From Stellaceae bacterium (lineage in GTDB: Bacteria; Pseudomonadota; Alphaproteobacteria; ATCC43930; CGMCC-115725), in the NCBI GenBank assembly GCA_035632515.1, contig DASQGR010000149.1, positions 1 to 49,343 on the forward strand: a DNA stretch of 49,343 nt, read 5' to 3'. Below the pieces are notes generated by a model. That model made no database searches, was not told the origin of the DNA, and saw nothing but the letters and a program-made list of their open reading frames with translations. Both the position numbers and the translations under genes were made by a program. This document shows, in pieces, positions 18,902 through 47,769 of the stretch. Each line of letters starts with the position of its first letter. Within the stretch, counting starts at the first letter, position 1.

Positions 18902-19117
18902 GACAAGCTTTCAATGTTGTACGACACCGTACTGGATCATTACCTGAGCAACAAATTCTCGCGAATTTTGGTCCAAAGTACACGCATATCTTATACGTTA
19001 GCGCACATCTTTTTGCCGCAGTTGCCCGGTAAGATTTGATTATTGCGCTGACTATTTTGAGCACCAGCGCAGCAGAGGGAGATGCGTACTCCCGCTCGGT
19101 TGTCTGGGGAGTGCGAC

Positions 19118-26601: not shown

Positions 26602-27207
26602 GTGTCGATTTCCACTGTTGTTCCGATCGGATTGGTCGAGCGCGCGACCGCGCGATCGCCTGTTCTTGCTCTCCCGATCCTCCCCCAAATCGAGCCCGGT
26701 CAGCTCTGGCTGATCGAGCTTGCGACGGCGCAGGATCCGCCCGCCGCGCCGCTGCGCCAGGCGATCGACCAGGCCAATGTCGTTATCTACGACCGGGCAT
26801 TTGCCGATTTCGTCGCCGCGTCGCTGCCGCTCGGCAACTATGCCGAGCCTGCCGCCAGCACTGACGAGGCGGGCGATCCGGCAGCGGCGCGCGCGGTGCG
26901 CTTTGCCTGCGACGGCTGGAGCGTCGCCCGCCTAGTGCCGCCCCACCCGACGCAGCGCGAGCGCATCGTCCGTGTTCGCCGGCTCGTCGAGGAACTCGCC
27001 GCGACCAAGGCGCCGGGCGATGTGCCGGTGACGGTTGTCGGCGAACTTGCCGATGGTGTCTTCGAGCCGACCGAGACCCGGCTCGACCGGCTCGACCTGG
27101 TCGTCGTCACCTATCCGCGCGATGCGCGCCTGACGATCGTCGTCGGCGACGTCGGCGGCACCGCGGCGCGGCTCCATGCCGTCGCCGCCAACGGGCTCGC
27201 CGGCTGA
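26602..27207 (+). CDS. degenerate tetrapyrrole (uroporphyrin-III C) methylase-like protein
   Basis: GTG start 8 nt after AAGGAG. LWLIELATAQDPPAAPLRQAIDQANVVIYDRAF parallels the CobA/CysG N-terminus (VYLVGAGPGDPELLT...ADVVLYDRLV), but the Gly-rich GAGPGD loop is replaced. At 201 aa it is shorter than canonical methylases. Confidence 0.5.
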   Translation: MSISTVVPIGLVERATARSPVLALPILPQIEPGQLWLIELATAQDPPAAPLRQAIDQANVVIYDRAFADFVAASLPLGNYAEPAASTDEAGDPAAARAVRFACDGWSVARLVPPHPTQRERIVRVRRLVEELAATKAPGDVPVTVVGELADGVFEPTETRLDRLDLVVVTYPRDARLTIVVGDVGGTAARLHAVAANGLAG

Positions 27208-27219
27208 GCTGGCTGCTCG

Positions 27220-27303
27220 ATGCATCGGCTCGGCGGCGCCGTCCTCGTCCTCGTGGTATTTTTTGGCGTGCTTTGGGCGGTCGGGCTGCTCCGACCGTTT
27301 TAA
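27220..27303 (+). CDS. possible 27-aa hydrophobic micro-protein
   Basis: Hand-translated MHRLGGAVLVLVVFFGVLWAVGLLRPF-stop, lying between the methylase-like gene and hemD. No homology was recognised. Confidence 0.2.
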   Translation: MHRLGGAVLVLVVFFGVLWAVGLLRPF

Positions 27304-27334
27304 GGGCGCAACACCCTTGCGGACGGTGCCCGGG

Positions 27335-28144
27335 ATGAGTGCTGCGTTAACCGGCCGGCGGGTCGTCGTTCCCGAGACGCGTGAGATCGAGCTGCTGGCC
27401 GGCATGCTGGAAAAGCACGGTGCCACGGTGGTGCGCTGCCCGCTGGTGGCGATCCGCGACGTCGCCGACCCGGCGCCGGTAATCGGCTGGATCGAGCGTT
27501 TCGTCGCAAGCCCGCCCGCCGATGCGATCCTCTTTACCGGGGAGGGGCTGCAACGCCTGCACCGGCTCGCCGAGGGTGCCGGGCTTGGCGAAAAATTCGT
27601 CGCGGCGCTCGGTCGGGTGCGCACGATCGCCCGCGGCCCCAAGCCGGCGCGGCGGCTGCGCGAGTTGGGGCTGAAGGTTGATTTGCCGGTCGAGCCGGCG
27701 ACCACGGCCGGAATCATCGCTGCCTTGTCGGCGGAAGACCTCTGCGGGCGGCGGATCGCGGTGCAGCTCTATCCCGACGCGCCGCAGGGGCTGCTGGCGT
27801 TCCTCGCCGAGAGGGGGGCCCAGGCCGACCCCGTCGTGCCCTACGCGTATGCTTCGGCCGCCGATGCGGAGCGGGTCGTCGCGATGATCGGCGAGATGGC
27901 GCGCGGCGAGGTCGATCTGGTCGCCTTTACCAGCTCGCCGCAATTGCGCCGCCTGCGCCAGGTGGCCCGGGCCCACGGCTGCGAGGCAGCGCTCGCCGAG
28001 GGCTTCGCCAAGACCAAGCTGGCTGCGGTCGGCCCGGTTGTCGCGGCGGCGATCGAAGCGGAAGGCGGTACGGTCGCAGTTGCGCCGCCGGCCAATTTCC
28101 ACCTGCGCCCGATGGTCAACGCCATTGTCGAGGCGCTGGGGTAG
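27335..28144 (+). CDS. hemD: uroporphyrinogen-III synthase
   Basis: 269 aa from ATG 27335. LTGRRVVVPETREIELLAGMLEKHGATVVRCPLV, DAILFTGEGLQRL, VDLVAFTSSPQL and KLAAVGPVVAAAIEAEG follow the two-lobed HemD pattern. Confidence 0.8.
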   Translation: MSAALTGRRVVVPETREIELLAGMLEKHGATVVRCPLVAIRDVADPAPVIGWIERFVASPPADAILFTGEGLQRLHRLAEGAGLGEKFVAALGRVRTIARGPKPARRLRELGLKVDLPVEPATTAGIIAALSAEDLCGRRIAVQLYPDAPQGLLAFLAERGAQADPVVPYAYASAADAERVVAMIGEMARGEVDLVAFTSSPQLRRLRQVARAHGCEAALAEGFAKTKLAAVGPVVAAAIEAEGGTVAVAPPANFHLRPMVNAIVEALG

Positions 28145-28217
28145 GAGGCCGGACAAGCCCGCGCGCGCTGCGAGACGCACCCTGCCGGCGGATTTCACGA
28201 CACCAAGAGGGCTGGCG

Positions 28218-29579
28218 TCAGCCGGCCCTGATCTCGTTCGCCGTCGCCCGGGCCCGTACCGCCGCCTCGCGGGCCATGTCGGCGCACAGGCCGGTGTAGG
28301 CGGTGGGGTCGAGCAGCGCGGCGATCTGTTTTGCGTCGAGATGGGCGGTCACCCGCTGGTCGGCCGCCAACAGCTCGGCGAAGGATTTGTGCTCGACCGC
28401 CGCCTCCATCGCCGCGTCGTAGACGACATCGTGGGCATGCTGGCGGCCGATCGCGGCGCCGAGGTCGAGCATCACCGCCTCGGCCATGATGAGGCCGCCG
28501 CCCAGGTCGAGATTGGCGCGCATCCGCGCCGGGTCGAGCTTCAGCCCGCGCAATATCTCGACCAGCCGGCTCAGCATGTCGCCGGTGGCGATGCAGGCGC
28601 GCGATTCGGCCGAATCCATCATCAGGCTGGTGGTGCGGTCGGCCTCATGCTCGGTCTGCATCGCTTCCAGGGCGAACGGCACGATCGCGCGAATCTCGGC
28701 CGCTGCGGCGATGATGTCCTGGCACAGCTTGGGGTTGCGCTTCTGCGGCATCGTCGAGCTGCCGACCGTGCCCGGCGGCACCGGCTCCTCGACCTCGCCG
28801 AACTCGGTCTTCATCAGCGTATAGATCTCGCGGCCGATCTGGCCGCAGGTCGCCGCCAGCATGCCGAGCAGGCAGATGTTCTCGGCAAGATGATCGAGGA
28901 TCACCCGCGACGGCACCGTCATCGAGTTGAACCCGAGCTGCCTGCCGATGCCGGCCTGCACCGGCGGCCCGTTCTTGCCGAGCGAGGCGAAGGTGCCGGC
29001 GCCGCCGCCCAGCATCGCGACAAAGATGCGCGGCGCCGCCTGATGGAAGCGCTCGACGTGGCGGATCAGCTGGTCGACCCACACCGCGACCTTGTAGCCA
29101 AAGGTCGCCGGCACCGCATGCTGGCCGTGGGTGCGGCCGGGGATCGGCATCTCGGCGCCGCGCTCGGCGAGGTCGGCGGCCGCGGCGAGGGCGTCGGCAA
29201 TCAGGCCGAGAAAGATGCCGTGCGCCTGGCGCAGCACCAGCAGGTCGCCGGTCTGGGTGATGTTCTGCGTCGTGGCGCCCCAATGCACCCAGCCGCCATG
29301 CGGCTCGCCGACGACGCGCGACAGCTCCCACACCAGCGGCACGATCGTATGGCCGGTGCGGGCGAAGCCCTCGTCGAGCCGGGCGCGGTCCATCAAGTCG
29401 TAATGCGCCGCCTTGGCGATCGCCTCGGCCGCCGCCGCCGGGATGATGCCGAGCTCGGCCTGGGCCCGGGCCAGCGCCGCCTCGACATCGAGCCAGGCCT
29501 GCCAGCGGTTTTCCAGGCGGTAGAGCGCGCGGATGCCGGGATCGGACACGCGCGCGGCGGTCGGGAGTTCATCGCTCAT
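28218..29579 (-). CDS. class II lyase (3-carboxy-cis,cis-muconate cycloisomerase / adenylosuccinate lyase family)
   Basis: 453-aa ORF with the family signature GSSTMPQKRNP, plus WGATTQNITQTGD and TFGYK motifs. Confidence 0.88.
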   Translation of the reverse strand: MSDELPTAARVSDPGIRALYRLENRWQAWLDVEAALARAQAELGIIPAAAAEAIAKAAHYDLMDRARLDEGFARTGHTIVPLVWELSRVVGEPHGGWVHWGATTQNITQTGDLLVLRQAHGIFLGLIADALAAAADLAERGAEMPIPGRTHGQHAVPATFGYKVAVWVDQLIRHVERFHQAAPRIFVAMLGGGAGTFASLGKNGPPVQAGIGRQLGFNSMTVPSRVILDHLAENICLLGMLAATCGQIGREIYTLMKTEFGEVEEPVPPGTVGSSTMPQKRNPKLCQDIIAAAAEIRAIVPFALEAMQTEHEADRTTSLMMDSAESRACIATGDMLSRLVEILRGLKLDPARMRANLDLGGGLIMAEAVMLDLGAAIGRQHAHDVVYDAAMEAAVEHKSFAELLAADQRVTAHLDAKQIAALLDPTAYTGLCADMAREAAVRARATANEIRAG

Positions 29580-29694
29580 CTGGGTTCCTCCCTGGGGGAT
29601 CGAGCGTCATATATCACTAACCGTGCGTCTTTAGGTTGACGACCGGCGGCTGCCCGGTCACAGGATCGGGCGGCATCAGCGGAGAGGTAAGGAC

Positions 29695-30285
29695 ATGCCC
29701 CACCCGACGATTTACTTGGCCCGTCACGGCGAGACGGAATGGAGCCTTTCCGGCCAGCATACCGGGCTCACCGACCTGCCGCTGACCCCGCATGGCGAGG
29801 AGCTGGCGCGCAAGCTGGCGCCGCGGCTCAAAGGCATGAGCTTTGCCAAGGTGTTCACCAGCCCGCTGCAGCGCGCCAAGCGGACTTGCGAGCTCGCCGG
29901 TTTCGCCGCCCGGGCCGAGATCATGCCCGAGCTCGTCGAATGGAATTACGGTGATTACGAGGGGATCAAGACTCACGACATCCACAAGGATCGCCCGGAC
30001 TGGCAGCTCTTCGACCACGGCGCCCCCGGCGGCGAATCGGTCGATCAGGTTACCGCCCGCGCCGGCCGCGTCATCGCCCGCCTGCGCGAGATCGACGGCA
30101 ATGTGCTGTGCTTTTCGAGCGGCCACTTCCTGCGCGCCTTGGCCGGCACCTGGCTGGGGTTCGGCGCCGCCGGCGGCCGCTATCTGATGCTCAGCACCAC
30201 CAGCCTCAGCGCGCTGAGCTACGAGCACAATGTGCAGGAACCGGTGCTCAAGCTGTGGAACGACACGGCGCATTTGAGCGGGTGA
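29695..30285 (+). CDS. histidine phosphatase (phosphoglycerate mutase-like) family protein
   Basis: Catalytic RHGET motif (LARHGETEWS), LTPHGEELA, and SPLQRAKRT. Confidence 0.88.
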   Translation: MPHPTIYLARHGETEWSLSGQHTGLTDLPLTPHGEELARKLAPRLKGMSFAKVFTSPLQRAKRTCELAGFAARAEIMPELVEWNYGDYEGIKTHDIHKDRPDWQLFDHGAPGGESVDQVTARAGRVIARLREIDGNVLCFSSGHFLRALAGTWLGFGAAGGRYLMLSTTSLSALSYEHNVQEPVLKLWNDTAHLSG

Positions 30286-30348
30286 CCGAGCGCGTCGGTG
30301 CATCCGCGCCGATGACGGGCCGCAGCCGTTTGCGCGCGTGACGGGCGC

Positions 30349-31527
30349 CTACAGCCTCACCATCCCCATCCACCACTGGGTCCGGCCGCCGACATCGATG
30401 TCGTATTTGCGGACGAAATCGAGCTTGCCGTCATCGCCGATGCGAAACACCGAGAGGCAGCACGGCACTTCGCGGAATCCCGCGCCCTCCTTGACGGTGA
30501 TGCCCTGGATGTGGGCGGCCACCAGCATTCGTCCGCTCGGATCGATGTGAAAGGTGCGGCAATGGATGCCGCGAGTGTCGACGTGCTGGATCGCATTCGG
30601 CTCGCCGGTCGCCGGATCGATGGCAAAAACCGCGAGCGTGTTTTCGCCGCCGGCGAAGACGCTGCGGCCCTCGACCGGCACCGCGGTCGAGGCGCGATTC
30701 GCGACGTAGACGAACTTGCCGCTGGGATGGACATGCACGGTGCCGACCGCCTGGCGCGCGCCCGGCGGGACCGGCTGCGACAGGGTCGACTTGCGGAACG
30801 CCGCCTCCGGGGTCAGCGCGCCGTTGTTCAAGGGAAACATGTCGACCCGATTCTCGCGTTCGAGCGAGACATAGACCCACGGCCGGGCCGGGTGGAAATC
30901 GAGGTGGCGCGGGCCGAAGCCGTAGCCGCCATTGGGCGCGATCGAGACTTCCCGGCTTAACATCCCGGCGTTGTAGTCGAAGACCTTGAGCGCGCCGGGC
31001 TCCTCGGGCCTGGCGCCGGCCGGGTCGTGACCGCGGGTGACCAGAATCACCTGCTTGTTGTCCGGGGTGGCGCGCACCTGATGGGCGAAGATGCCCGGGT
31101 CGATCGTACCCGGCTGCGCCACCTCGACGCCCGGGGTGCCGTCCGGATTGATCCGGTAGATGTGGATCGAGCTTGGGTTGTTGAACGCGACCAGCGCGTG
31201 CTCGCTGGGGATGTCGGTCGCCATGTGGATCGGGCGGGTCGGCAGCGGGATCGAGGCCCCGTGCGGCGACAAGGCGCCCGAGCCCGGGTCGATTCGCAGC
31301 GCGGTGAGGCGATGATTCGTGCCGGCGGGCCCCATGCCCGAGGCGCTATCGCTGGTAGCGACGTAAAGAAAGGGCTGCGAGGCGTGCGGCCATGCGTATT
31401 GCACATTCGCCGGCAGCGATACCGTACCGCGTCGGGTCAGCGCGGCGCCGGCGACATCGACGTCGTAATGCGTCAGCTCGGCGCCGATATTAGCGTAAAG
31501 CGCGATTTTTGCTGCGGATGCGGGCAT
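30349..31527 (-). CDS. lactonase, 7-bladed beta-propeller family
   Basis: 392-aa ORF with repeated blade-like units (PFLYVATSDS, HALVAFNNPSSIHIY, KQVILVTRGHD, PWVYVSLEREN, KFVYVANRAS, RMLVAAHIQG), typical of the 6-phosphogluconolactonase / muconate lactonizing propeller family. Confidence 0.8.
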   Translation of the reverse strand: MPASAAKIALYANIGAELTHYDVDVAGAALTRRGTVSLPANVQYAWPHASQPFLYVATSDSASGMGPAGTNHRLTALRIDPGSGALSPHGASIPLPTRPIHMATDIPSEHALVAFNNPSSIHIYRINPDGTPGVEVAQPGTIDPGIFAHQVRATPDNKQVILVTRGHDPAGARPEEPGALKVFDYNAGMLSREVSIAPNGGYGFGPRHLDFHPARPWVYVSLERENRVDMFPLNNGALTPEAAFRKSTLSQPVPPGARQAVGTVHVHPSGKFVYVANRASTAVPVEGRSVFAGGENTLAVFAIDPATGEPNAIQHVDTRGIHCRTFHIDPSGRMLVAAHIQGITVKEGAGFREVPCCLSVFRIGDDGKLDFVRKYDIDVGGRTQWWMGMVRL

Positions 31528-31772: not shown

Positions 31773-34223
31773 TTGGCCGCAGATTTCAAGGTTGTCATCA
31801 TTGGCTCCGGACCGGCCGGCTTGAGCGCCGCCGTTCACGCCGCCAAGGGCGGCGTGTCCCATGTGCTGCTCGAGCGTACCGACCACATCAACAACACCAT
31901 CTTCCGCTATCAAAAGCGCAAGCACGTGATGGCGACCCCCGAGGTCCTGCCGCTGCGCAGCGACCTCGAGTTCGAGGAGGAGTCGCGCGAGGAGTTGATC
32001 GACAGTTGGACCGGGGGTTCCACCGCAGCGGGGATCAACATCCGGTTCAACACCGAGGTGTCGGCGATCAAGGGCGAGAAGGGCAATTTCCAGGTTCAGC
32101 TCGTTGGCGGCGGGGTGATCTCCGCCGAATACGTCGTCCTCGCCATCGGGGTGCAGGGCAATTTCAACCGGTTGAGGGTTCCCGGCGCCGATCTGCCTTT
32201 CGTCCAGTACCAGCTCGACGATCCCGACGAATACCGGGAGGAGAAGATCGCGGTCATCGGGGTCGGCGATGCCGGCATCGAGAACGCGCTGGCGCTGGCG
32301 ACCAACAACGAAGTCTACGTGCTCAACCAGAAGGACGACTTCCCGCGGGCCAAGGCCGGCAATCGCGCGCTGATCATGGCCGCGGTTGCCAAGAACCCGG
32401 ACGAGGCGGGCTCGATCAACCACGTCGTCAACGTCGAGACGCAGGAAATCGTCGCCGGCCCGCCGGGCCAGCCCGGCGAACTGGTGCTGCACCGCGCCGA
32501 CGGCGCAACGGTGCGCGTCGCGTGCAACCGGGTCATCGCGCGCATCGGCGCACAGCCGCCGCGCCGCTTTCTCGAAGATTGCGGCATCGTCTTCACCAGC
32601 GCCGACCGCAACGCCATCCCGGAGGTGTCGGAGACCTACGAATCAGGGGTCAAGGGACTCTATATAATAGGGGCGCTGGCCGGGTACCCGCTGATCAAGC
32701 ATTGCCTCAACCAGGGCTACGAGGTCATCGAGTACATCCTCGGCAACGAGCTCCCGCCGGCCGACGAGCCGCTGATCCAGGCAAAGCTGACCCCCGAGAA
32801 GATACGTGTCCTCGATCCGAGCAAGGACGCGATGACCGGCGCCGAGCTGATCGGCTACATCAGAGCACGGGCGCCGATGTTTTCGGGCCTCAAGCCGATC
32901 CAGATCCGCGAATTCCTGATCCATGCGGAGCTGCATCGGCTGCAGCCCGGCGACGTCGTCTTCCGCCGGGGCGAGTCGACCAATTCGCTGTACACCATCC
33001 TCGACGGTCAGGTCGGCATCCAGATCGACCCGACCAATCCGGCGGAGATGGTTCATCTCGGACCCGGCCAGTTCTTTGGCGAGATGGGGCTGATCTCCGG
33101 CCGCAAGCGCACCGCCACGGTCGTCGCCGCCCAGCCGAGCCTGTTGCTCGAAGTCGACCGCAACACGATGATCCGGCTGGAGCGTTCGGAAGCATCGATC
33201 AAGCAGGCCATCGATTCGGCCGCCGTGATTCGCCAGATCAAGACGTTCCTGGCCCCGCAGGTCGAAGACAGCCTGCTCGCCGAGGTGGTGGCGACCTCCA
33301 AGATCGTCGAATTCAAGCCCGACCAGAAACTGATCGAAGAGGATGCCGAGGACGATGCGGTCTATCTGATTCGCAAGGGCTCGGTGACGGTGTCGATGCG
33401 GGTCGGCGGCAAGGATGTCGTGCTCGCCTATGTCCCGGCCGGCAATTATGTCGGCGAAATGGCGATGATCACCCGCCGCCGCCGTGCCGCAACGGTCACC
33501 GCCGCCAGCGTTACCGAGGCGATCCGCATCGACAGCAGCGCCTTTCGCAAGCTGCTCGACCGCGATCCCGACCTGCGTCGACGGGTCGAGGACAAGCTCG
33601 AGCAGCGGCTGGCCGAGCGCAACCAGATGCAGCAGAACGCCGAGACCGGCGATCTGATCAAATTCCTGGTGCGCGAGGGGCTGGGGGAGGCGACCAACGT
33701 CCTGCTGATCGACGAATCGCTCTGCGTGCGCTGCGACAATTGCGAGAAGGCCTGCGCCGAGACCCATCACGGCGTCAGCCGGCTCAACCGCGAGGCCGGG
33801 CCCACCTTTGCGATGGTGCACGTGCCGACCTCGTGCCGGCATTGCGAAGACCCGCATTGCATGACCGATTGTCCGCCGGACGCGATCCACCGCGCGCCGA
33901 ACGGCGAGGTGTTTATCAACGACCAATGCATCGGCTGCGAGAATTGTAAGAACAACTGTCCCTACGGCGTCATCCAGATGGCGGCGGTGCCGGAAGAAAA
34001 GCCCGGCCTGCTGAGCTGGCTGCTGTTCGGCTGGGGCGCCGGCCCGGGCGAGGACAAATCGCCGGAGGGCATGGCCAAGCGCACCGGCGGCAAGCATGCC
34101 GTCAAATGCGATATGTGCAAGGATCTGGCCGGACCGGCCTGCGTGCGCGCCTGCCCGACCGGCGCGGCGATTCGCGTCGATCCGGCCGGGTTCATCGACG
34201 TCATGCGCCAGGCCCAGGCATGA
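31773..34223 (+). CDS. fusion protein: TrxR-type FAD/NAD(P)H oxidoreductase + two cNMP-binding domains + four-cluster [4Fe-4S] ferredoxin domain
   Basis: 816 aa with a TTG start.
- **aa 4-320:** KVVIIGSGPAGLSAA and KIAVIGVGDAGIE dinucleotide folds, with no redox CxxC.
- **aa ~365-480 and ~495-605:** FGEMGLISGRKRTATV and VGEMAMITRRRRAATV cNMP signatures.
- **aa 651-794:** four Cys motifs, CVRCDNCEKAC, CRHCEDPHCMTDCP, CIGCENCKNNCP and CDMCKDLAGPACVRACP. Confidence 0.85.
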   Translation: MAADFKVVIIGSGPAGLSAAVHAAKGGVSHVLLERTDHINNTIFRYQKRKHVMATPEVLPLRSDLEFEEESREELIDSWTGGSTAAGINIRFNTEVSAIKGEKGNFQVQLVGGGVISAEYVVLAIGVQGNFNRLRVPGADLPFVQYQLDDPDEYREEKIAVIGVGDAGIENALALATNNEVYVLNQKDDFPRAKAGNRALIMAAVAKNPDEAGSINHVVNVETQEIVAGPPGQPGELVLHRADGATVRVACNRVIARIGAQPPRRFLEDCGIVFTSADRNAIPEVSETYESGVKGLYIIGALAGYPLIKHCLNQGYEVIEYILGNELPPADEPLIQAKLTPEKIRVLDPSKDAMTGAELIGYIRARAPMFSGLKPIQIREFLIHAELHRLQPGDVVFRRGESTNSLYTILDGQVGIQIDPTNPAEMVHLGPGQFFGEMGLISGRKRTATVVAAQPSLLLEVDRNTMIRLERSEASIKQAIDSAAVIRQIKTFLAPQVEDSLLAEVVATSKIVEFKPDQKLIEEDAEDDAVYLIRKGSVTVSMRVGGKDVVLAYVPAGNYVGEMAMITRRRRAATVTAASVTEAIRIDSSAFRKLLDRDPDLRRRVEDKLEQRLAERNQMQQNAETGDLIKFLVREGLGEATNVLLIDESLCVRCDNCEKACAETHHGVSRLNREAGPTFAMVHVPTSCRHCEDPHCMTDCPPDAIHRAPNGEVFINDQCIGCENCKNNCPYGVIQMAAVPEEKPGLLSWLLFGWGAGPGEDKSPEGMAKRTGGKHAVKCDMCKDLAGPACVRACPTGAAIRVDPAGFIDVMRQAQA

Positions 34224-35155
34224 GCGTCAGCGAACAGGCGGCCGCTCGGCCCAACGCCGCTTCCGCCGCCGCGCCGCGAACGGACCGGCACACCTCCTTC
34301 CTCGCCTATGAAGGGTATCGCTATCTGAAATGGGCGCTCGCCGCGGTGGTGGCGGCGATCCTGCTTTATTGGCTGGTGCCGCCCTACGGCGCGCGCTACG
34401 GCGGCGGCTGGGCCGGGTACACGCTGGGGACGGTGGGCGCCCTGCTGATCCTGTGGCTGACCTGGTTCGGCTATCGCAAGCGCACCTATGCCTCGAGCCT
34501 GGCCGGCGCGGCGGATGTCGGCGGCAATCCCGTCGAGGATCCGAGCCGGCTGGCGCGGCGACTGTCGGCGCATGTCTACCTCGGCAGCGCGCTGCTGGTC
34601 ATCGCGACGCTGCACACCGCGTTCAATTTTCATTGGAACATCCACACCCTGGCCTATGCACTGATGTGCATCGTCATTTTCAGCGGCATGTTCGGGGTTG
34701 TCGCCTATGCCCGCTATCCGCGGCGGATGACCGAGAATCGCGAAAACCTCACCCTGGGGCAGATGCTCACCCGTGTCGGCAGCATTGACGGCGAGTTGCG
34801 CCGCGGCGCGATGCAGCTCGACGATGCGACGGTCGCCATGATCGAGAATACGGTCGAGACGACCGCGATCGGGGGCTCGATGTGGCGGCAATTGTCGGGG
34901 CGCTATCCCCGGTGCACCACCGCCGCGGCGATCGCCCGCATGGATGCGCGCGCCGAGGCGGTCCCGCCCGAGCTGCAGGATGCCTGGCGCCAGACCCGGC
35001 TGAGGCTGGAGGAAAAGGCCGCCCTTCTGACGCGCCTGCGCCGCGACATCCGCTTCAAGGCGATGATGGAGGTGTGGCTCTTCCTGCATGTTCCGCTGAC
35101 CTTCGCCCTGATTGCCGCGCTTGTCGCCCACATCGTCGCGATCTTTTTCCTTTAG
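34220..35155 (+). CDS. 5-TM membrane protein with two H-x13-H pairs (candidate di-haem b-type transmembrane electron carrier)
   Basis: ATG 34220 overlaps the upstream stop (ATGA). TM3 is HVYLGSALLVIATLH (His codons at 34571 and 34613). TM5 is HVPLTFALIAALVAH (His codons at 35087 and 35129). An Arg-rich loop of about 95 aa separates TM4 and TM5. Confidence 0.7.
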   Translation: MSVSEQAAARPNAASAAAPRTDRHTSFLAYEGYRYLKWALAAVVAAILLYWLVPPYGARYGGGWAGYTLGTVGALLILWLTWFGYRKRTYASSLAGAADVGGNPVEDPSRLARRLSAHVYLGSALLVIATLHTAFNFHWNIHTLAYALMCIVIFSGMFGVVAYARYPRRMTENRENLTLGQMLTRVGSIDGELRRGAMQLDDATVAMIENTVETTAIGGSMWRQLSGRYPRCTTAAAIARMDARAEAVPPELQDAWRQTRLRLEEKAALLTRLRRDIRFKAMMEVWLFLHVPLTFALIAALVAHIVAIFFL

Positions 35156-35225: not shown

Positions 35226-36986
35226 ATGGAGGTTGAGTTCACCTTTCTCACCCAGCGCGGCACCGCGGTGATGCGCCGGTCTCAGCGAGCCAGCGCCGAC
35301 AGCGTGCGGCTGGGTCGCGGCACCGACAACGAGGTGCCGCTGGGCGATATTCGCGTCGGGCTGCGGGTGGCGCAGCTCGTGCGGCGTCCCGACGGGATCG
35401 CGATCGAGAAACTCGGGGCGATGCCGCTGCAGGTAAACGGCCAGTCGGTCGACAATGCGATGCTGCATGTCGGCGACGAGATTCGGCTCGGCCCCTACCG
35501 GATCGAGGTCACGGCACCGCCCGAGGGCTGCGACGGCGCGATCCAAATCGAACTGGCGGAGCCGCTGGCCTCGGCGACCGACCCGGTGCGGGCGAGCTCC
35601 CGAATCGGCCTGGAGCACGCCGGCTTCAGCAAGCGCATCGCCTCGTGGACCGGCGTCTTGGTGCTGGCGGTTATCTGCCTGGCGGTGCCGCTCATCGTCT
35701 TTACCAGCGGCGCGTTGACGCCGTGGCACAAGGACACGCCGGCACCGCATGCGACGACCCTGGTCGGGCTGTCGTGGAATACCGGCGAATTCTCGAATTC
35801 GCATCGATTTTTCGCCAAGAATTGCGCGACCTGCCATGAGGGCAAGTTCTCGCGCGTCGCCGACACGGCATGCCTTGCCTGCCACGCGGCGGTCGGCAGC
35901 CATGTCGAGCACGGCGTCAAGCTCGGCTCGGCGGGCGAGCAGCTGGCGGAGTCCCGCTGTATCGATTGCCATACCGAGCACCGCGGCGTGCGCGGCTCGG
36001 TGATCCGCACTGCCGCGCTCTGTCTCGACTGCCATCGCGGGCTCGACAAGACCGCTCCGGAGGCCGGGGTAAAGGCGGTCGGCGGCTATCCGGCCGGCCA
36101 CCCCCAGTTCCGCGCAACGCTTGTCGCCGATGCCGCAAAAAAGCAGAACGTGCGGGTCGAGCTCGGCAGCAAGCCGGCGCCGGCCGATCATCCGGGGATC
36201 AAATTCTCGCACGCGGCCCATCTCGTGCCGGGCGGCTTCCCGAAGCTCCACTACAAGGAGATGGCCTGCGCCGATTGCCATGTCCCGGAGCCGGGCGGCC
36301 AAAGCTTTCAGCCGATCACGTTCAAAGGCCAGTGCCAGAGCTGCCACAACGACAATCTGACATTCGACAGCGTCGCGTTGCCGTGGTCCGGCGCCAAGGT
36401 ACCGCATGGCGATGACAGCGCGGTCGTCGCCGGGGTGGTCAACTTCTATGCCGCGCAGGCAGTGCAGAACGGCGCCGCCGCGCCTGCCGCAACGCCCGCG
36501 GTCGAGCGGCGCGGCGCCGGCATGCCGACTTCGCTGGCAAGCGCGGCGCCGGCCAGCGTCCAGGCGTGGATACGCGACAAATCGCAGGCCGCGCTCCGGG
36601 TGATTTTCGACGAGAAGCGCGGCTGCGCCTATTGCCACTACGGCACCGGGGCGGACGGTGCCATCGACACCGGCAAGGTGATGGCGAGCCTGGCGGCAGA
36701 CAAGGAACCGCTGAAGGTGATCGCCGCGGTCGAGATGCGCACCCGGTTTCTGCCCAACGCGGTCTTCGACCATTCCCAGCACCGCGGCGTGAAGTGCGAG
36801 GAATGCCATGCCAGCCGCCAGTCCCAGGCAAGCGCCGACGTGCTGATCCCGGGCATCGAGACCTGCAAGACTTGCCACGGCGCCGAGGACGTCCACCTGC
36901 AGGTCAAGTCGACCTGCATTACCTGCCACGTCTTTCACCGCAGCGAGTTGGGGTTGATGCACATGACCGCGGAGGCGCCAAAATGA
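35226..36986 (+). CDS. FHA-like domain / single TM / decahaem c-type cytochrome
   Basis: 586 aa. aa ~1-98 are FHA-like (VRLGRGTDNEVPLGD...LQVNGQSV...VGDEIRLGPYRIEV). The TM helix spans aa 139-160 (WTGVLVLAVICLAVPLIVF). There are ten CxxCH motifs, with first Cys at aa 200, 216, 245, 266, 348, 370, 467, 524, 547 and 564. Confidence 0.85.
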   Translation: MEVEFTFLTQRGTAVMRRSQRASADSVRLGRGTDNEVPLGDIRVGLRVAQLVRRPDGIAIEKLGAMPLQVNGQSVDNAMLHVGDEIRLGPYRIEVTAPPEGCDGAIQIELAEPLASATDPVRASSRIGLEHAGFSKRIASWTGVLVLAVICLAVPLIVFTSGALTPWHKDTPAPHATTLVGLSWNTGEFSNSHRFFAKNCATCHEGKFSRVADTACLACHAAVGSHVEHGVKLGSAGEQLAESRCIDCHTEHRGVRGSVIRTAALCLDCHRGLDKTAPEAGVKAVGGYPAGHPQFRATLVADAAKKQNVRVELGSKPAPADHPGIKFSHAAHLVPGGFPKLHYKEMACADCHVPEPGGQSFQPITFKGQCQSCHNDNLTFDSVALPWSGAKVPHGDDSAVVAGVVNFYAAQAVQNGAAAPAATPAVERRGAGMPTSLASAAPASVQAWIRDKSQAALRVIFDEKRGCAYCHYGTGADGAIDTGKVMASLAADKEPLKVIAAVEMRTRFLPNAVFDHSQHRGVKCEECHASRQSQASADVLIPGIETCKTCHGAEDVHLQVKSTCITCHVFHRSELGLMHMTAEAPK

Positions 36987-38968
36987 CCGATTCGCGCCGA
37001 CCGAGATTTCTCCATCATCCGGCGTTTCGTGCCGCCATGGCGGTGCTTTCCGTATGGTGCATGGCGCCGGGCGGCTGTGGCGGCGGCAGCAGCGGCGCCA
37101 ACAACAGCAACCCGAACGCGATCACCCCGGCGGCGCCGGTTGCCGACACCAGCCCCAACCTGACCGAGAGCGACGTCAACACGATCGTGCTGCAGGCGAT
37201 CAACGAGGCGACCGCCCGCGGCCGGCCGGCGACCATTGCCGTGGTCGATCGGGTCGGCAATGTGCTGGCGGTGACCCAGATGGCAGGCGCGCCGGTCTTG
37301 GCGACGGTCACCTCGGGGCGCGGCGTGACGACCGGGCTCGAGACGGTTCAGGTGCCGACGACGCTCGCGGCGCTCGCCAAGGCCTATACCGGCGCCTACC
37401 TGTCGTCGAACGGCAACGCCTTCAGCACCCGCACTGCCAACCAGATCGTCCAAGAGCATTTCAACCCCGGCGTCCGCGGCACGCCGGGCGGGCCGCTGTT
37501 CGGGGTGCAGTTCAGCCAGCTCGCCTGCTCCGATTTCAACACCGCCGCCTCCCCCGTTGCCGGCGGCACCAATGCCGGGCCGCATCGCTCGCCGCTCGGC
37601 TTTTCCGCCGATTCCGGCGGGTTGCCGATCTACAAGAACGGCGTCCTCGCCGGCGGTATCGGGGTGATGACCAAGACCATCTATGGCGCCAACCTCAATA
37701 TTTTTGCCGTGCCGATCGATGACGACGAGGTGGTGGCTATCGCCGGAACGACTGGATACGCGGCGCCGCCGGCGATTACCGCCGACAACATCGCCGTCGG
37801 CGGCCTGACGCTGCAATATATCGACGCCTCCAGTGCCAATCTTGCCGCGCCGGTGTCGGCTGCGGGCACCTTCACGCCGCTGCCGGTGGCCGGGTACTGG
37901 GCCGGGCCCGCCGCCGGTCACACGGCGAATGCCGGGTTGATCTACGGCAGCGCGGACGGCGCTTCGGGAGTGGCTCCGGACGGCGCACTCGGCCCGGTGA
38001 TCTACCCCGGCACCACCCAGACCTCCTACGTCTTCACCGACGGCGCCGGCCATATCCTCTACCAGCCGACCGCAGGGGCGATGCCGGCAGACGGCAATGC
38101 GATCACCGCGGCGGAGGCGAAAGGGCTGACTACCGCGGCGCTCAATGTCGCCTACTCGGCCCGTGCCGCCATCCGGGTGCCGACCAACAGCTTCGCCCAG
38201 GTGACCGTCACCGTGGTCGATCTCGACGGCAATGTGCTGGCCCAGGCGCGCACCCCTGACGCACCGATCTTCGGCGCCGACGTGTCGCGGCAAAAGGCGC
38301 GCTCGGCCGTGTTCTTTTCGCGGCCCGACGCGGCAGCGAAGATCAACGCGATCACCGCTCCGGCGAGCACCGTGACCGGCACTTTTGCCGACTACATCAC
38401 CCGCTCGCAGTTGTTGATCGGCAGCGGCACCTTCTCCAACAGTTTGGCTTGGGCGGCGGTGTCGATCGGCGATGTGGCGCGGCCGTTTTATCCGGACGGC
38501 ATCGACGGCAACCAGCCGGGATCGCTGAGCCTGCCCTTCGACCGATGGAGCGTGTTTTCGACCGGCCTGCAGGTCGACCTGGTGACGAGCGATATCGTTG
38601 CCGGCACGACCGGGGCGCTGGCGCCCGCGACTGGCTGCGGCAACGCCAACGGCCGAGGCTTGCCGCCGACCGCGAGCGGCAAGACCCAGCTCGCCAACGG
38701 ACTGCAGATCTTCTCCGGGTCGGTGCCGATCTACCGCGGCAATGTCCTGGTCGGCGCCGTCGGCGTCTCCGGTGACGGCATCCAGCAGGACAGCCTGATC
38801 TCGTTCCTCGGCCTGGACCGCTTCGCCGCGCAGGACGGCGCAAACCCCATCGCCAACGCGCCCGCGGCAATCCGTGTCGACCTCCTCAAGCCGGCCGGCG
38901 TCAACCTGCGCTACACCAACTGTCCGGCGGCCCCCTTCGTCGACTCCACCGTGCAAAACCCGTGCTGA
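36983..38968 (+). CDS. probable lipoprotein with two GlcG/HbpS-like (DUF336) domains
   Basis: ATG 36983 overlaps the upstream stop (ATGA). The signal is followed by Cys and a Gly/Ser linker (MAPGGCGGGSSG). There are two DUF336-like units, ending in GGLPIYKNGVLAGGIGV and SGSVPIYRGNVLVGAVGVSGDGIQQD. Confidence 0.7.
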   Translation: MTDSRRPRFLHHPAFRAAMAVLSVWCMAPGGCGGGSSGANNSNPNAITPAAPVADTSPNLTESDVNTIVLQAINEATARGRPATIAVVDRVGNVLAVTQMAGAPVLATVTSGRGVTTGLETVQVPTTLAALAKAYTGAYLSSNGNAFSTRTANQIVQEHFNPGVRGTPGGPLFGVQFSQLACSDFNTAASPVAGGTNAGPHRSPLGFSADSGGLPIYKNGVLAGGIGVMTKTIYGANLNIFAVPIDDDEVVAIAGTTGYAAPPAITADNIAVGGLTLQYIDASSANLAAPVSAAGTFTPLPVAGYWAGPAAGHTANAGLIYGSADGASGVAPDGALGPVIYPGTTQTSYVFTDGAGHILYQPTAGAMPADGNAITAAEAKGLTTAALNVAYSARAAIRVPTNSFAQVTVTVVDLDGNVLAQARTPDAPIFGADVSRQKARSAVFFSRPDAAAKINAITAPASTVTGTFADYITRSQLLIGSGTFSNSLAWAAVSIGDVARPFYPDGIDGNQPGSLSLPFDRWSVFSTGLQVDLVTSDIVAGTTGALAPATGCGNANGRGLPPTASGKTQLANGLQIFSGSVPIYRGNVLVGAVGVSGDGIQQDSLISFLGLDRFAAQDGANPIANAPAAIRVDLLKPAGVNLRYTNCPAAPFVDSTVQNPC

Positions 38969-41037
38969 GCGTGCCCCGGCGTATCGACCGATCGCGGCGC
39001 GAGCGGCGACTGGGCCGCAGCGCGCTCGCGTTCATGGCCGCGATGACGGCGCTGACCGGCGCGGCCACGCCGCCCCACGCCTCGGTCGACATCGGCGAGC
39101 TGCGCCGCGACCGGCGCATGGCCGACGAGCTCTACTCGGCGACGACCGGCGACGCCGCCGCCTTCGAGAAAGCGCTAAAGACCCCGGTCCTGCGCAGCGA
39201 GCTCGAACGAACCCTCAACCGTCAGCTCTCCGACGAGACGCTCCAGGCGATGGCCTCGCACGCCCGTGCCGAGGCCGATTACTGGGCCTCCTATCGCCGC
39301 GGCATCGACATGGCGATCGGCGCCGAGGGCCCGTTGATCATGGGCCGCCGGGCGCCCGGCCGGGCCCCGCCGAGCTCGGAGGCCGAGCCCATCGTCAATC
39401 CGGCGGCGTTGCCGCCGCCCGAGCCGTTCGAGCGGGGCGGCTATGTCCCGGTGCAGGATCGCTGGCGCATTCTCGACGCGCTCGGCCGCCGTGAGAACCT
39501 GCTCGATCCCTACAACACCAACACGCTGAAGGCGGATAAGCCGATCTTCGGCGAGGACTGGTTCGTCAACGTCGCGGCGATCGTCGATATTCTCTACGAG
39601 CCGGCGCGGGTGCCGCTGGGGGTCGGCGCGCAATACATCGCGCGGCCGCTCGAAAACAATACATTCGGCCGCTACGGCCGCACCATGCTCAACCAGACCG
39701 ATATTCTCAGCGTCTCGTTGATCAAGGGCGACACCGCGTACAAGCCGCCCGATTTGGAGTTCCGCCTGACCCCGGCGTTCAATTTCAACCATACCGATGT
39801 CGGCGAAATCGGCGTCCTCAACATCGATCCGGCCTACGGGCAAACGCGCAACGACAATTTCATCGGCCTGCAGGAAGGGTTCATCGACTATCACTTCCGC
39901 AACGTCTCCGAGTATTACGATTTCGATTCGGTCCGCGTCGGCATCCAGCCGTTCAACGCCGATTTCCGCGGCTTTTTGTTTCAGGACAACCAGCTCGGCG
40001 TGCGCTTGTTCGGCGATCGCGACGCCAATCGCTGGCAGTACAACCTCGCCTATTTCCGCCGGCTCGAAAAAGACACCAATAGCGGCCTCAACGATATCGG
40101 CCAGGCAGTGCGGCAAGACGGCGTCTTTATCGCCAATTTGTTCCGCCAGGATTTCCCGGTGCACGGGTTCACCTCGCAGATTGCCTTTCTGCGCAACGAC
40201 AACCACGAGGGCGGCGATTTTCACTTCGACAAGAACGGGTTCCTCGTTCGCCCGTCGCAGATCGGCGACAATCGTGGCTACAACTATGACGCCAATTATC
40301 TCGGCTTCAACGGCGACGGCCATTTCGGCCGCGTCAACCTGACGACCTCGGCCTACTATCTGTTCGGCCATCTGAGCCACAATCAGTTTGGCGCGCCGGG
40401 CAACAAGGGCTCTGACATCAGCGCTTTCTTCGTTGCCGCCGAGCCGTCGATCGATTTCGACTGGGCGCGGTTCCGGTTGTCCGGCCTCTACGCCAGCGGC
40501 GCCCGGCATCCGCAAAGCGGTACGGTCGGCGGGTTCGATGCAGTGTTCGAGAACCCGCAATTCGCCGGTGCCGACTCGAGCTTCTGGATCCGCCAGTCGA
40601 TCCCGCTCATCGGCGGCGGCGGCGTGGCGCTCAACACCCCGAACGGCGTGCTCGCCGACCTGCGCTCGTCGAAGGGCGAGGGCCAGTCGAACTTCCTCAA
40701 TCCGGGGATCATGCTCGCCGGTATCGGCGGCGATTTCGACATTCTGCCCGAGCTGCGTTTGTCGACCAATTTCAACTATCTGCGCTTCGACACTACCGCC
40801 CCGCTCGAATTCCTGCGCCACCAGGCGAACATTCCCAACTCGATCGGCTGGGACCTGTCGGCGGCGCTGACCTACCGGCCGCTATTCACCCAGAATATCG
40901 TCTTCCGGCTCTCCGGCGCGGTGTTGCTGCCCGGCGAAGGCACCAAGGCGCTGTTCAATACGCCGGGCGGCCTCGGCCTCTTCGGCAATGACGGTCTGCT
41001 CTACTCGGTTCTGGCCAACGTGATCGTGAACTATTGA
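38962..41037 (+). CDS. large outer-membrane beta-barrel-like protein with a helical N-terminal extension
   Basis: 691 aa. GTG 38962 overlaps the upstream stop by 7 nt. It has a signal-like N-terminus, a helical segment of about 100 aa, then long runs of alternating-hydrophobicity strands rich in Y/F/N/G/D (NRWQYNLAYFRRLEKD, ISAFFVAAEPSIDFDWARFRLSGLYASG). The C-terminus ...VLANVIVNY ends in an aromatic residue. No family was recognised. Confidence 0.6.
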   Translation: MLSVPRRIDRSRRERRLGRSALAFMAAMTALTGAATPPHASVDIGELRRDRRMADELYSATTGDAAAFEKALKTPVLRSELERTLNRQLSDETLQAMASHARAEADYWASYRRGIDMAIGAEGPLIMGRRAPGRAPPSSEAEPIVNPAALPPPEPFERGGYVPVQDRWRILDALGRRENLLDPYNTNTLKADKPIFGEDWFVNVAAIVDILYEPARVPLGVGAQYIARPLENNTFGRYGRTMLNQTDILSVSLIKGDTAYKPPDLEFRLTPAFNFNHTDVGEIGVLNIDPAYGQTRNDNFIGLQEGFIDYHFRNVSEYYDFDSVRVGIQPFNADFRGFLFQDNQLGVRLFGDRDANRWQYNLAYFRRLEKDTNSGLNDIGQAVRQDGVFIANLFRQDFPVHGFTSQIAFLRNDNHEGGDFHFDKNGFLVRPSQIGDNRGYNYDANYLGFNGDGHFGRVNLTTSAYYLFGHLSHNQFGAPGNKGSDISAFFVAAEPSIDFDWARFRLSGLYASGARHPQSGTVGGFDAVFENPQFAGADSSFWIRQSIPLIGGGGVALNTPNGVLADLRSSKGEGQSNFLNPGIMLAGIGGDFDILPELRLSTNFNYLRFDTTAPLEFLRHQANIPNSIGWDLSAALTYRPLFTQNIVFRLSGAVLLPGEGTKALFNTPGGLGLFGNDGLLYSVLANVIVNY

Positions 41038-44867: not shown

Positions 44868-45572
44868 ATGGATCGGCGTTTGTTTCTATCCTTGCTGGGT
44901 GCGGCATTGGCGTCGCCGTCGGTGTCACAGGCCCAACCGGCCGCTCCACGATTGCGCCGACTGAAACTGGTCAACGCCCATACCGGCGAGACCTTCAACG
45001 GACCCTATCGCGACGATGGCGGCCCGATCGCTGCGGCGATGGAGGACCTCTCCGCCTTCTTGCGCGACCATCATTCCGGCGAGACGATCGACTACGATGT
45101 CGGGGTCATCGATTTTCTCGCCGGGGTGATGGAGGCGGTCGGCGCCGGCCAGGCGACGATCCTTTCGGCCTATCGCACCCGGGCGACCAACCAGATGCTG
45201 GCGCGCACCACGTTCGGCGTCGCCGACAACAGCCAGCACATCTACGGCCGCGCGCTCGACATCTACCTGCCGGTGCGGCTCGATACCGCAATGGAGGTGG
45301 CGCGGGCGATGCAGCGCGGCGGTGTCGGCTGGTATCCGGATTCGCACTTCATGCACCTCGACAGCGGGCCGGTGCGCAACTGGACCCTGGGCGGCGAAGG
45401 GTTCGAGCGTTTGTTGCTCGAGTTGCGGCGGATCATCGCCAAGGGCGACCTCTCGGTGACGCCCAAGGGTGAGTTGCGGGTCGGCGACGAGCAGCGGCCG
45501 CTATCGGCAAAAGAGCGGTTGGCCCTGCACCGCCTCCTCAGCAAGGCCGAGGCGGCTGTCGCCTCTCACTGA
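44868..45572 (+). CDS. DUF882 / YcbK(MepK)-like peptidase M15 family protein with a Tat signal
   Basis: MDRRLFLSLLGAALASPSVSQA carries a twin-arginine motif. SQHIYGRALDIY (HxxGxAxD) and SHFMHLD are metal-ligand motifs typical of DUF882. Confidence 0.8.
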   Translation: MDRRLFLSLLGAALASPSVSQAQPAAPRLRRLKLVNAHTGETFNGPYRDDGGPIAAAMEDLSAFLRDHHSGETIDYDVGVIDFLAGVMEAVGAGQATILSAYRTRATNQMLARTTFGVADNSQHIYGRALDIYLPVRLDTAMEVARAMQRGGVGWYPDSHFMHLDSGPVRNWTLGGEGFERLLLELRRIIAKGDLSVTPKGELRVGDEQRPLSAKERLALHRLLSKAEAAVASH

Positions 45573-47675: not shown

Positions 47676-47769
47676 GGGCGGTCGACGGCCTCGCAGCCGG
47701 AACGAAACGACCTTAAAGGAATTTCCGCCGATGCAAAATCGGTTCCGTGGCGCCGTTGCTTGCCGTTGC

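Follow-up and report, generated by a model that had tools for sequence, protein, structure and literature searches.

A putative cyclic-nucleotide-gated NAD(P)H dehydrogenase heads a conserved multihaem cytochrome operon in a Stellaceae bacterium

Known extracellular electron-transfer systems of Gram-negative bacteria draw on the quinone pool, and their conduits through the envelope are fed by the quinol dehydrogenases CymA, ImcH and CbcL. The contig DASQGR010000149.1 of a Stellaceae bacterium (assembly GCA_035632515.1; 49,343 nucleotides, analysed in full and referred to here as the window) contains a predicted six-gene operon, A to F, whose products probably pass electrons of cytoplasmic NAD(P)H through the inner and outer membranes, controlled by cyclic nucleotides. 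Gene A (31773–34223, forward strand) encodes a predicted cytoplasmic protein of 816 residues in which a flavoprotein, two cyclic-nucleoside-monophosphate-binding (cNMP-binding) domains and a polyferredoxin are fused. It is followed by genes for a membrane protein (B), a membrane-anchored decahaem cytochrome (C), an exported protein (D), a probable outer-membrane barrel (E) and a secreted decahaem cytochrome (F). We propose, at about even odds, that A acts as an NAD(P)H dehydrogenase gated by cNMP and serves as the cytoplasmic electron input to a six-gene trans-envelope haem wire.

The ptdABCDEFG operon is a putative porin-cytochrome cluster described from metagenome-assembled genomes (MAGs) of marine Alpha- and Gammaproteobacteria (Elbon, Stewart & Glass, 2024 preprint, 10.1101/2023.11.21.568154). 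It encodes, in order, the pentahaem cytochrome PtdA, the porin PtdB, the FAD/NAD(P) oxidoreductase PtdC, the tetrahaem cytochrome PtdD, the cNMP-binding protein PtdE with two Fe-S (4Fe-4S) clusters, the ferric-reductase-like transmembrane protein PtdF, and the periplasmic decahaem cytochrome PtdG. Its function was called "completely unknown" by its authors, who also reported ptd genes from Nitrospirales (10.1101/2023.11.21.568154). Compared by description only, the two systems share a consecutive trio of cNMP/Fe-S protein, membrane protein and decahaem cytochrome, and the inner-membrane components of the ptd operon look like A-B-C. The order multihaem-A-B-C found at one distant related locus (L087) fits PtdD-E-F-G. 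However, the window lacks upstream genes like those for PtdA to PtdD, as do most related loci, and has D-E-F downstream instead. PtdE is described with two clusters and no fused flavoprotein is mentioned, whereas A has motifs for four clusters and an N-terminal flavoprotein. The ferric-reductase label of PtdF was not reproduced for B, since the ferric-reductase family PF01794 was matched by only one of 27 members of the B family, with an E value of 0.82. A literature search beyond this preprint returned nothing relevant on the architecture of A, on clusters of LVIVD and multihaem proteins, or on extracellular electron transfer in Woeseiaceae. A lead from Magnetospirillum proved to be unrelated.

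In formate dehydrogenase-N (Fdh-N) of Escherichia coli, the four-cluster ferredoxin FdnH is paired with FdnI, a di-haem b subunit of the PF01292 type. Genes A and B likewise pair a four-[4Fe-4S] domain of the same type with a membrane protein that has two histidine pairs and matches PF01292, the FdnI/HyaC family. However, the topology is inverted, because the Fe-S domain of A is predicted to be cytoplasmic, where it is fused to a flavoprotein and two cNMP-binding domains. Furthermore, B scores below the PF01292 threshold and has five predicted transmembrane helices together with a cytoplasmic helical domain, and its downstream partner would be a multihaem cytochrome and not quinone. The NOX/ferric-reductase enzymes and the Fre-MsrQ-MsrP system share with the operon the logic of NAD(P)H, flavin, two b haems stacked in the membrane, and an acceptor at the outer face. 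The flavin reductase of Fre-MsrQ is a cytoplasmic protein in its own right. The operon differs from both in that B is not demonstrably a ferric-reductase domain, a four-cluster wire would lie between flavin and haem, and the acceptor would be a chain of c-type cytochromes.

Like the porin-cytochrome conduits MtrCAB/CymA, Geobacter Pcc and PCC3, the operon combines two decahaem cytochromes, one periplasmic and one secreted, with a probable outer-membrane barrel. Searches for homology to MtrA, MtrB and MtrC gave no significant result: the match to the DmsE family had an E value of 1.5e-4 and 21 bits (cut-off 192), and that to the MtrC-MtrF domain, at E 7.5e-4, was also below its cut-off. Haem counts and composition rule out membership of the PCC3 group, the periplasmic cytochrome of which has 21–27 haems, whereas that of the operon has 10, a transmembrane anchor and an FHA-like domain. 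In place of the quinol dehydrogenases that feed the known conduits, the operon encodes its own putative flavo-Fe-S input for NAD(P)H, equipped with second-messenger domains.

The open reading frame of A starts with TTG, 5 nt after the Shine-Dalgarno-like sequence GGGAAG, and comprises 816 translated codons before a TGA stop. Hidden Markov model assignment with Pfam and NCBIfam gave the order FAD/NAD(P)H flavoprotein, two cNMP-binding domains and four-[4Fe-4S] domain, in line with homologues and with the AlphaFold model of the whole protein (predicted local distance difference test score, pLDDT, 87.5; predicted template modelling score, pTM, 0.82). An earlier sequence-only reading of this DNA had proposed the same fusion, which is thus borne out, and the two dinucleotide-binding motifs, both phosphate-binding cassettes and the four cysteine motifs lie where it had placed them. 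No solved structure spans more than about one third of A according to a Foldseek search of the PDB, the matches of which were confined to the N-terminal module. The N-terminus, read from the sequence, enters the first Rossmann strand directly (MAADFKVVIIGSGPAG). Therefore, A carries no recognisable signal peptide or Tat (twin-arginine) peptide, and the earlier inference of a cytoplasmic Fe-S domain holds.

Residues 1–320 of A (31773–32732) form a two-Rossmann flavoprotein of the YpdA/TrxR type, with the FAD motif GSGPAG at residues 11–16 and the NAD(P)H motif GVGDAG at residues 163–168. Pfam assigned Pyr_redox_3 to residues 8–300 (E 5.9e-33) and Pyr_redox_2 to residues 5–315 (E 3.1e-23). The best phmmer match of this module in the PDB was the bacillithiol disulfide reductase YpdA/Bdr (7a7b, E 3.9e-17), followed by thioredoxin reductases of low molecular mass, and the thioredoxin-reductase-type ferredoxin-NADP+ reductases were weaker (5ygq, E 1.7e-5; 3ab1, E 6e-4). 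The structural comparison by Foldseek gave the same ranking, with template modelling (TM) scores, normalised to the target, of 0.82–0.83 for YpdA/Bdr (7a7b/7a76, E 2e-24) and about 0.6–0.65 for 3ab1, 6gar and 3lzw. The model fits the flavin-reducing (FR) conformation of thioredoxin reductase (5mh4, TM 0.82) better than the flavin-oxidising (FO) one (5mjk, TM 0.58). A nevertheless scores below the NCBIfam cut-offs of both families, with 124.4 bits against 339.9 for TIGR04018 (YpdA/Bdr) and 61.6 bits against 343 for TIGR01292 (low-molecular-mass thioredoxin reductase).

The residues required for thiol chemistry are absent from the flavoprotein. Residues 1–640 of A contain no CxxC motif, and their only cysteines, Cys251, Cys270 and Cys311, are not invariant. 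The catalytic Cys14 of YpdA/Bdr (motif GGGPCG) aligns with Ala15 in the GSGPAG of A, and the position is Ala, Gly or Ser, never Cys, in all 44 diverse family members. Since both the CxxC and the YpdA cysteine are missing, the flavoprotein appears to be a YpdA/TrxR scaffold unable to perform thiol chemistry. This rules out A as a disulfide or bacillithiol reductase, as the sequence-only reading had surmised from the lack of a CxxC pair. The same reading had likened the module to ferredoxin-NADP+ reductases of the thioredoxin reductase type, a comparison that is apt for its likely function and its missing CxxC but not for its ancestry. Because YpdA/Bdr is closer by both sequence and fold, "ferredoxin-NADP+ reductase-like" is a functional inference and does not denote the nearest homology. 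The obvious redox partner of the flavoprotein is the fused Fe-S domain, and in this choice of electron acceptor A differs from YpdA/Bdr and the low-molecular-mass thioredoxin reductases. Most members have N185-R186 and R192-A-K194 after the second Rossmann strand, and the window protein has Q186-K187. These residues resemble the site for the 2'-phosphate of NADPH in thioredoxin reductase, and we leave the cofactor specificity as NAD(P)H.

The polyferredoxin of A is of the HycB/HydN type (residues 644–810; 33702–34202) and contains 16 cysteines in four motifs: C651xxC654xxC657xxxC661, C688xxC691x4C696xxxC700P, C719xxC722xxC725xxxC729P and C779xxC782x7C790xxxC794P. They would be enough to ligate four [4Fe-4S] clusters, and all 16 are 99–100% conserved in 80 orthologues. 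The Pfam families Fer4_11 (42.3 bits, cut-off 26.2) and Fer4_7 cover residues 681–798. The best PDB match, which includes all four motifs, is HycB of the E. coli formate hydrogenlyase (7z0s_B, E 3.9e-19, residues 644–808); HycB3 and HycB4 of the hydrogen-dependent CO2 reductase and ArrB come next, and the NCBIfam matches include the AegA N-terminus, HydN and the formate dehydrogenase beta subunit. HycB, HycB3/HycB4, HydN and the N-terminus of AegA are cytoplasmic. Tat-dependent export is limited to a periplasmic subset of the four-cluster ferredoxins, namely FdnH, NrfC and, by hitch-hiking, DmsB. The expectation of the sequence-only reading that domains of this kind are normally exported by the Tat pathway was therefore mistaken. 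The cytoplasmic location of the Fe-S domain is unremarkable, because its closest relatives are themselves cytoplasmic, and an anomalous cytoplasmic copy of a Tat-exported ferredoxin is ruled out.

Two cNMP-binding domains are located between the flavoprotein and the Fe-S domain. The first comprises residues ~365–480 (32865–33212; Pfam match at residues 388–469) with the phosphate-binding cassette FGEMGLISGRKRTATV at residue 435, and the second residues ~496–620 (33258–33632; matched by Pfam and, at residues 496–619, by CRP) with the cassette VGEMAMITRRRRAATV at residue 560. Pfam cNMP_binding (PF00027) is matched in two stretches with an E value of 2.4e-37 and 127.2 bits (cut-off 27.5). The tandem as a whole, residues ~365–620, aligns over its full length with the tandem domains of the regulatory subunits of PKA and of PKG. 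The cassettes read G436-E437...R446-T-A and G561-E562...R571-A-A, so that the pattern Gly-Glu...Arg-(Thr/Ala)-Ala is kept on alignment and both modules are complete, as had been claimed from the letters alone. The Gly-Glu pair and the phosphate-binding arginine of both domains are retained in at least 95% of 80 orthologues. Among the 44 most diverse members, G436 is invariant, E437 is present in 43, Arg446 in 32 and Arg571 in 34. Both domains look competent to bind a nucleotide, which may be cAMP or cGMP. In the AlphaFold model, a long helix (residues 599–634) leads from the second cNMP-binding domain into the Fe-S domain. The output of the tandem would be a redox enzyme, and not a kinase, channel, transcription factor or acetyltransferase as in PKA-R/PKG, MloK1/SthK, CRP and mycobacterial Pat. 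No report of a cNMP-regulated oxidoreductase was found in the literature searched.

Gene A is the first gene of the predicted operon, the genes of which lie on the forward strand in a conserved order. The ATG of gene B (34220–35155) overlaps the stop codon of A in the sequence ATGA (4 nt); gene C (35226–36986) follows after a gap of 70 nt, gene D (36983–38968) overlaps the stop of C in another 4-nt ATGA, gene E (38962–41037) overlaps D by 7 nt, and gene F (41042–44821) begins 4 nt after E. A scan of the operon for promoters and terminators found nothing above chance.

The 311-residue protein B is predicted to span the membrane five times, and about 115 further residues make up a helical domain on the cytoplasmic side. 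Five histidines are invariant in 77 orthologues: His118, His132, His142, His290 and His304. Four of them form two His-x13-His pairs (i, i+14), His118/His132 in transmembrane helix 3 and His290/His304 in helix 5, and the two helices run in the same direction. Pairs arranged in this way are the classical ligands of two b haems stacked from one membrane face to the other, and we propose that B is likely a di-haem cytochrome b. The positive-inside rule places His118/His290 near the cytoplasmic face and His132/His304 near the periplasmic face. PF01292 (cytochrome b561/Ni_hydr_CYTB) is matched at 16.4 bits, below its gathering cut-off of 30.1; all 27 family members examined match it below threshold, with a best E value of 1.2e-6. 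A structure model of B was built from database homologues, and no protein with a ferric-reductase domain was among its Foldseek matches in the PDB. A ferric-reductase or b561 fold was not confirmed for B, as neither fold nor profile searches of the PDB gave a significant match.

Protein C (586 residues) is composed of a cytoplasmic FHA-like domain (residues ~25–93), a single transmembrane helix (residues ~136–167) and a periplasmic part with ten CxxCH motifs, all of which are invariant in 69 orthologues. Its Pfam matches are FHA, Yop-YscD_cpl (PF16697), Cytochrome_C7 and c3, and NCBIfam adds faint matches to NrfH and DmsE (E ~1e-3 to 1e-4). The FHA match (PF00498) is just above threshold, at 21.6 bits against 20.7. 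Gly-Arg and Asn-Gly are conserved in this domain, and the Ser-x-x-His and Ser-x-Asn positions are not (VGLRVA and GAMPL). The domain resembles the phospho-independent FHA domains of the YscD type.

The proteins encoded by D, E and F would continue the path outwards. D (~661 residues) is predicted to be exported, possibly as a lipoprotein, and contains three HbpS-like/GlcG-type stretches (E 6.6e-19; PDB matches 2a2l, 6bws and 4nkp). The HbpS/GlcG family has been linked to haem binding and oxidative-stress sensing. The gene is located between the two decahaem cytochrome genes, and its product could conceivably carry haem or another tetrapyrrole, shuttle electrons or serve as a sensor. E (691 residues) matches no Pfam or NCBIfam family, but has a signal-like N-terminal segment and ends in VNY, and is a probable outer-membrane beta-barrel. 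In F (1259 residues), a signal peptide and ten CxxCH motifs are combined with a C-terminal LVIVD beta-propeller (E 2.5e-16), and there is a weak match to ExtM. ExtM belongs to a selenite/tellurite operon. F is the best conserved protein of the cluster, with 57–84% identity except for one match of 45% at a contig end.

The family of A is large, and the fusion, called unusual in the sequence-only reading, is neither rare nor unique. In a protein collection clustered at 90% identity, 6211 proteins match A at E<=1e-10. The best 120 are full length (772–831 residues), 64–84% identical to A and have an identical Pfam set. An exhaustive HMMER search of representatives at 50% identity gave 847 matches at E<=1e-30, of which about 50 are full length, down to ~31–34% identity. 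Overall, full-length relatives are 31–84% identical to A, and many are from uncultured Alpha- and Gammaproteobacteria. Their database names are generic, either "cyclic nucleotide-binding domain-containing protein" or concatenated COG names from JGI. A scan of one genome per species found a relative of A in 250 genomes, and 80 loci, all from MAGs, were fetched for comparison. The alphaproteobacterial loci (57–83% identity) are from Stellaceae, Azospirillaceae and Elsteraceae, and the gammaproteobacterial ones (49–54%) from Steroidobacteraceae, Woeseiaceae, Acidibacter, Pseudomonadales and others. The window has a G+C content of ~67%; its nearest matches are an alphaproteobacterial MAG (83%) and Stellaceae.

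Gene order was compared by tblastn in relatives down to 49% identity, and loci were counted where the contig reached far enough. Downstream of A, in the same order and on the same strand, B is present in 75 of 77 loci, C in 68 of 69, D in 60 of 63, E in 55 of 58 and F in 53 of 57. The full order is kept at 40% identity (L087), and B- and C-like genes are still linked to A at 34% (L088). The two closest relatives of the window gene (L003 and L004) retain A-B-C only, together with two C554-type tetrahaem genes nearby, and at L087 a C554-type multihaem gene directly precedes A-B-C. Since A-B-C is kept without D-E-F in L003 and L004, it behaves as a separable unit and seems to be an inner-membrane module that can be combined with alternative outer modules, possibly of the ptd type. 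C554-type tetrahaem genes near A-B-C were observed at L003:15699–18103, L004, L021:5330–8218 and L087:8378–9919, where D-E-F is lacking or supplemented.

The variant proteins of the family included P0137, P0170 and P0222/P0239/P0254. One relative has two FHA domains fused to the N-terminus of A (1134 residues), and in another variant (917 residues) an additional single-cluster ferredoxin separates the flavoprotein from the cNMP tandem. Short relatives of ~470 residues consist of two cNMP-binding domains and the Fe-S domain without a flavoprotein. Their neighbourhoods are free of cytochromes, and they form a separate branch and not a split version of the system.

A gene for a class III adenylate/guanylate cyclase with a CHASE2 domain lies near A in L003. 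In most gammaproteobacterial loci, full-length homologues precede A on its own strand, at a distance of 3–6 kb. At L053:4857–9998, the cyclase is followed by a TPR protein, a FecR-domain protein and then A, and the FecR gene overlaps A by 4 nt. The same string was seen in at least 20 other gammaproteobacterial loci, for example L037, L044, L065, L082 and L083. Among loci with at least 7 kb of upstream sequence, the 32 of the gammaproteobacterial type have the cyclase in 23 cases, the TPR gene in 21 and the FecR gene in 21, whereas the corresponding numbers for the 25 of the alphaproteobacterial type are four, zero and one. The string of cyclase, TPR and FecR genes looks like the sensory input of the system.

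From the domain content, conservation and synteny of the operon we infer a mechanism of electron transfer in which the occupancy of the cofactor sites, the b haems of B, the direction of flow, the bypass of quinone, the gating and the acceptor are conditional. NAD(P)H would reduce the FAD of the YpdA/TrxR-like module, and the electrons would be conducted by the four [4Fe-4S] clusters of the HycB-like domain. The operon context is the reason for reading this Fe-S chain as an exit wire to B and the multihaem cytochromes. The electrons may enter B at the cytoplasm-side haem (His118/His290), cross the membrane to the periplasm-side haem (His132/His304), and reduce the membrane-anchored decahaem cytochrome C; D, E and F would then take them on to an acceptor in the periplasm or outside the cell. 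A probably docks at the degenerate FHA-like domain of C. The tandem cNMP-binding domains, placed between flavin and Fe-S wire, would function as an allosteric gate: cAMP or cGMP may permit or block the transfer from flavin to cluster by setting the geometry between the two, perhaps by acting on the large FO/FR domain rotation that is typical of enzymes of the thioredoxin reductase type. The nucleotide would be supplied, in many lineages, by the CHASE2 cyclase of the same gene string. Outward electron export of this kind is downhill in both redox and electrical terms, and it depletes NAD(P)H without any conservation of energy. A second-messenger switch on the input enzyme would thus make sense; the gate would shut a drain that dissipates the proton-motive force until it is signalled to open.

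The sequence-only reading had suggested nucleotide-gated intramolecular electron transfer. Gating is plausible, and it gains independent support from the CHASE2 cyclase directly upstream of A in 23 of the 32 gammaproteobacterial loci; the FHA- and ferredoxin-fused variants of A point the same way. The purely intramolecular view of a stand-alone protein misses the operon. More tentatively, and at somewhat less than even odds, A-B-C may represent an unrecognised class of electron exporter that is gated by a second messenger and independent of quinone, with the path NAD(P)H, FAD, four [4Fe-4S] clusters, two b haems and multihaem c, with interchangeable outer modules (D-E-F here, Ptd-type elsewhere), and with a cNMP tandem that would be the first such receptor known to control an oxidoreductase directly.

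Several observations weigh against cNMP-gated export through B and C. The phosphate-binding arginine is gone in about one quarter of the most distant members of the family. The transmembrane region of B is modelled moderately (pLDDT ~55–80), and B has no significant PDB match by sequence profile or by Foldseek (best E 0.5); because of this, its haem binding is argued from the conserved histidines. The canonical serine and histidine that bind phosphothreonine are missing from the FHA-like domain of C. The window has no cyclase gene, and most alphaproteobacterial loci have none adjacent to A. All carriers found are MAGs, and the system is known from sequence. Finally, a quinone step is possible, since the relatives of B in PF01292 handle quinones and C has a layout like that of NapC/CymA, which makes a quinone-coupled pathway a serious rival.

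In such a pathway, A and B would together be a cNMP-regulated NAD(P)H:quinone oxidoreductase built as an inverted Fe-S/di-haem-b pair of the Fdh-N kind, and C would be a separate quinol dehydrogenase like NapC/CymA that feeds the outer cytochromes. The PF01292 members FdnI and HyaC are quinone reductases, and this family, the characterised members of which reduce or oxidise quinones, is the sole detectable similarity of B; the single transmembrane helix, multiple haems and faint NrfH/DmsE matches of C fit as well. However, B has no recognisable quinone-site motif or family membership and scores under every cut-off. The genes A, B and C are invariably adjacent and translationally coupled, and the cytoplasmic FHA-like domain on C, together with the FHA domains fused to A in some relatives, argues for a physical A-B-C complex and against coupling by way of a diffusible pool. 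We regard coupling through quinone as unlikely, although it survives best among the alternatives.

Slightly less probable is the export of reducing power for service in the periplasm or at the cell surface, in the manner of Fre-MsrQ-MsrP or NOX, where it would be used not to dispose of electrons as in respiration but in repair, detoxification or assimilation, such as iron acquisition, the handling of reactive oxygen species, or oxyanion reduction by F. The membership of D in the HbpS/GlcG family, with its ties to haem binding and oxidative-stress sensing, is consistent with this role, as is the LVIVD propeller of F, which is not a cytochrome domain, could be catalytic and accompanies the weak ExtM match. 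The hosts also look aerobic, with cytochrome bd oxidase genes in the window. However, an outer-membrane-type protein and two decahaem cytochromes exceed the wiring needs of periplasmic repair, and no recognisable catalytic reductase domain was found among the Pfam and NCBIfam matches of the downstream genes.

It is improbable that the conduit runs in reverse, importing electrons from a donor outside the cell or in the periplasm, be it Fe(II) or Mn(II), reduced humics or a cathode, so that A reduces NAD(P)+ for biosynthesis. Multihaem porin-cytochrome systems can be bidirectional (Mto/Mtr, PMC10734462), and related clusters occur in lineages that include lithotrophs, with ptd genes reported from Nitrospirales; nevertheless, inward electrons would move against the membrane potential towards the NAD(P)+ couple at -320 mV, and the gene content of the operon suggests no energy-coupling subunit such as a proton or ion pump. 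Very unlikely is a soluble stand-alone A with unrelated neighbours, for instance a redox sensor that responds to cNMP or a reductase of the disulfide or bacillithiol kind, for although YpdA/Bdr is its best single-family match and short cNMP-Fe-S relatives without a flavoprotein occupy unrelated contexts, the YpdA cysteine and the TrxR CxxC are both missing, the score is far under the family cut-off (124 versus 340 bits), and synteny and start/stop overlaps are kept across two proteobacterial classes.

The remainder of the window contains genes that lie outside the operon. Upstream of A, the region 27176–31527 holds HemD-like, adenylosuccinate-lyase-like, histidine-phosphatase and seven-bladed lactonase genes. 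The closer alphaproteobacterial loci, L002, L006 and L007 among them, share this synteny and the gammaproteobacterial ones do not, so that these genes are probably lineage context outside the system. A Crp/Fnr-type regulator (cNMP_binding and HTH_Crp_2; 19082–19822, forward strand) is located ~12 kb upstream of A, within a stretch at 18–22 kb of the window that has a G+C fraction of 0.59–0.62 compared with ~0.67 elsewhere. Subunits I and II of a cytochrome bd terminal oxidase are encoded at 11073–13774 (reverse strand), which suggests a host with aerobic respiration, possibly at low oxygen tension. The forward strand at 15513–17828 encodes a molybdopterin-binding subunit of the xanthine dehydrogenase/aldehyde oxidase family. 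Two open reading frames of 402 codons on the reverse strand (45566–47807), a short way past the end of the operon, have weak matches to PilN, PilM and T2SS-C, and are not kept beside the operon in related loci.

The system is widespread, seems to have been noticed once, in the ptd preprint, and has never been characterised. It resembles porin-cytochrome or NOX-like transmembrane electron transfer in kind. If the proposed mechanism is correct, the operon would feed a trans-envelope haem wire straight from NAD(P)H and bypass the quinone pool. Electron export spends membrane potential, and such a route would need tight control, which would be exerted by cAMP or cGMP on the enzyme itself; A would then be the first cyclic-nucleotide receptor known to govern an oxidoreductase directly. 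The operon also offers a mechanistic entry to the uncharacterised clusters of the ptd type. For the abundant soil and sediment Proteobacteria that carry it (Stellaceae, Steroidobacteraceae and Woeseiaceae), the system would provide a switchable exit for cytoplasmic reducing equivalents. The carriers are cosmopolitan and mostly uncultured inhabitants of soil, freshwater and marine sediment, and a hidden extracellular redox activity in these organisms would bear on the cycling of iron, manganese and humic substances.

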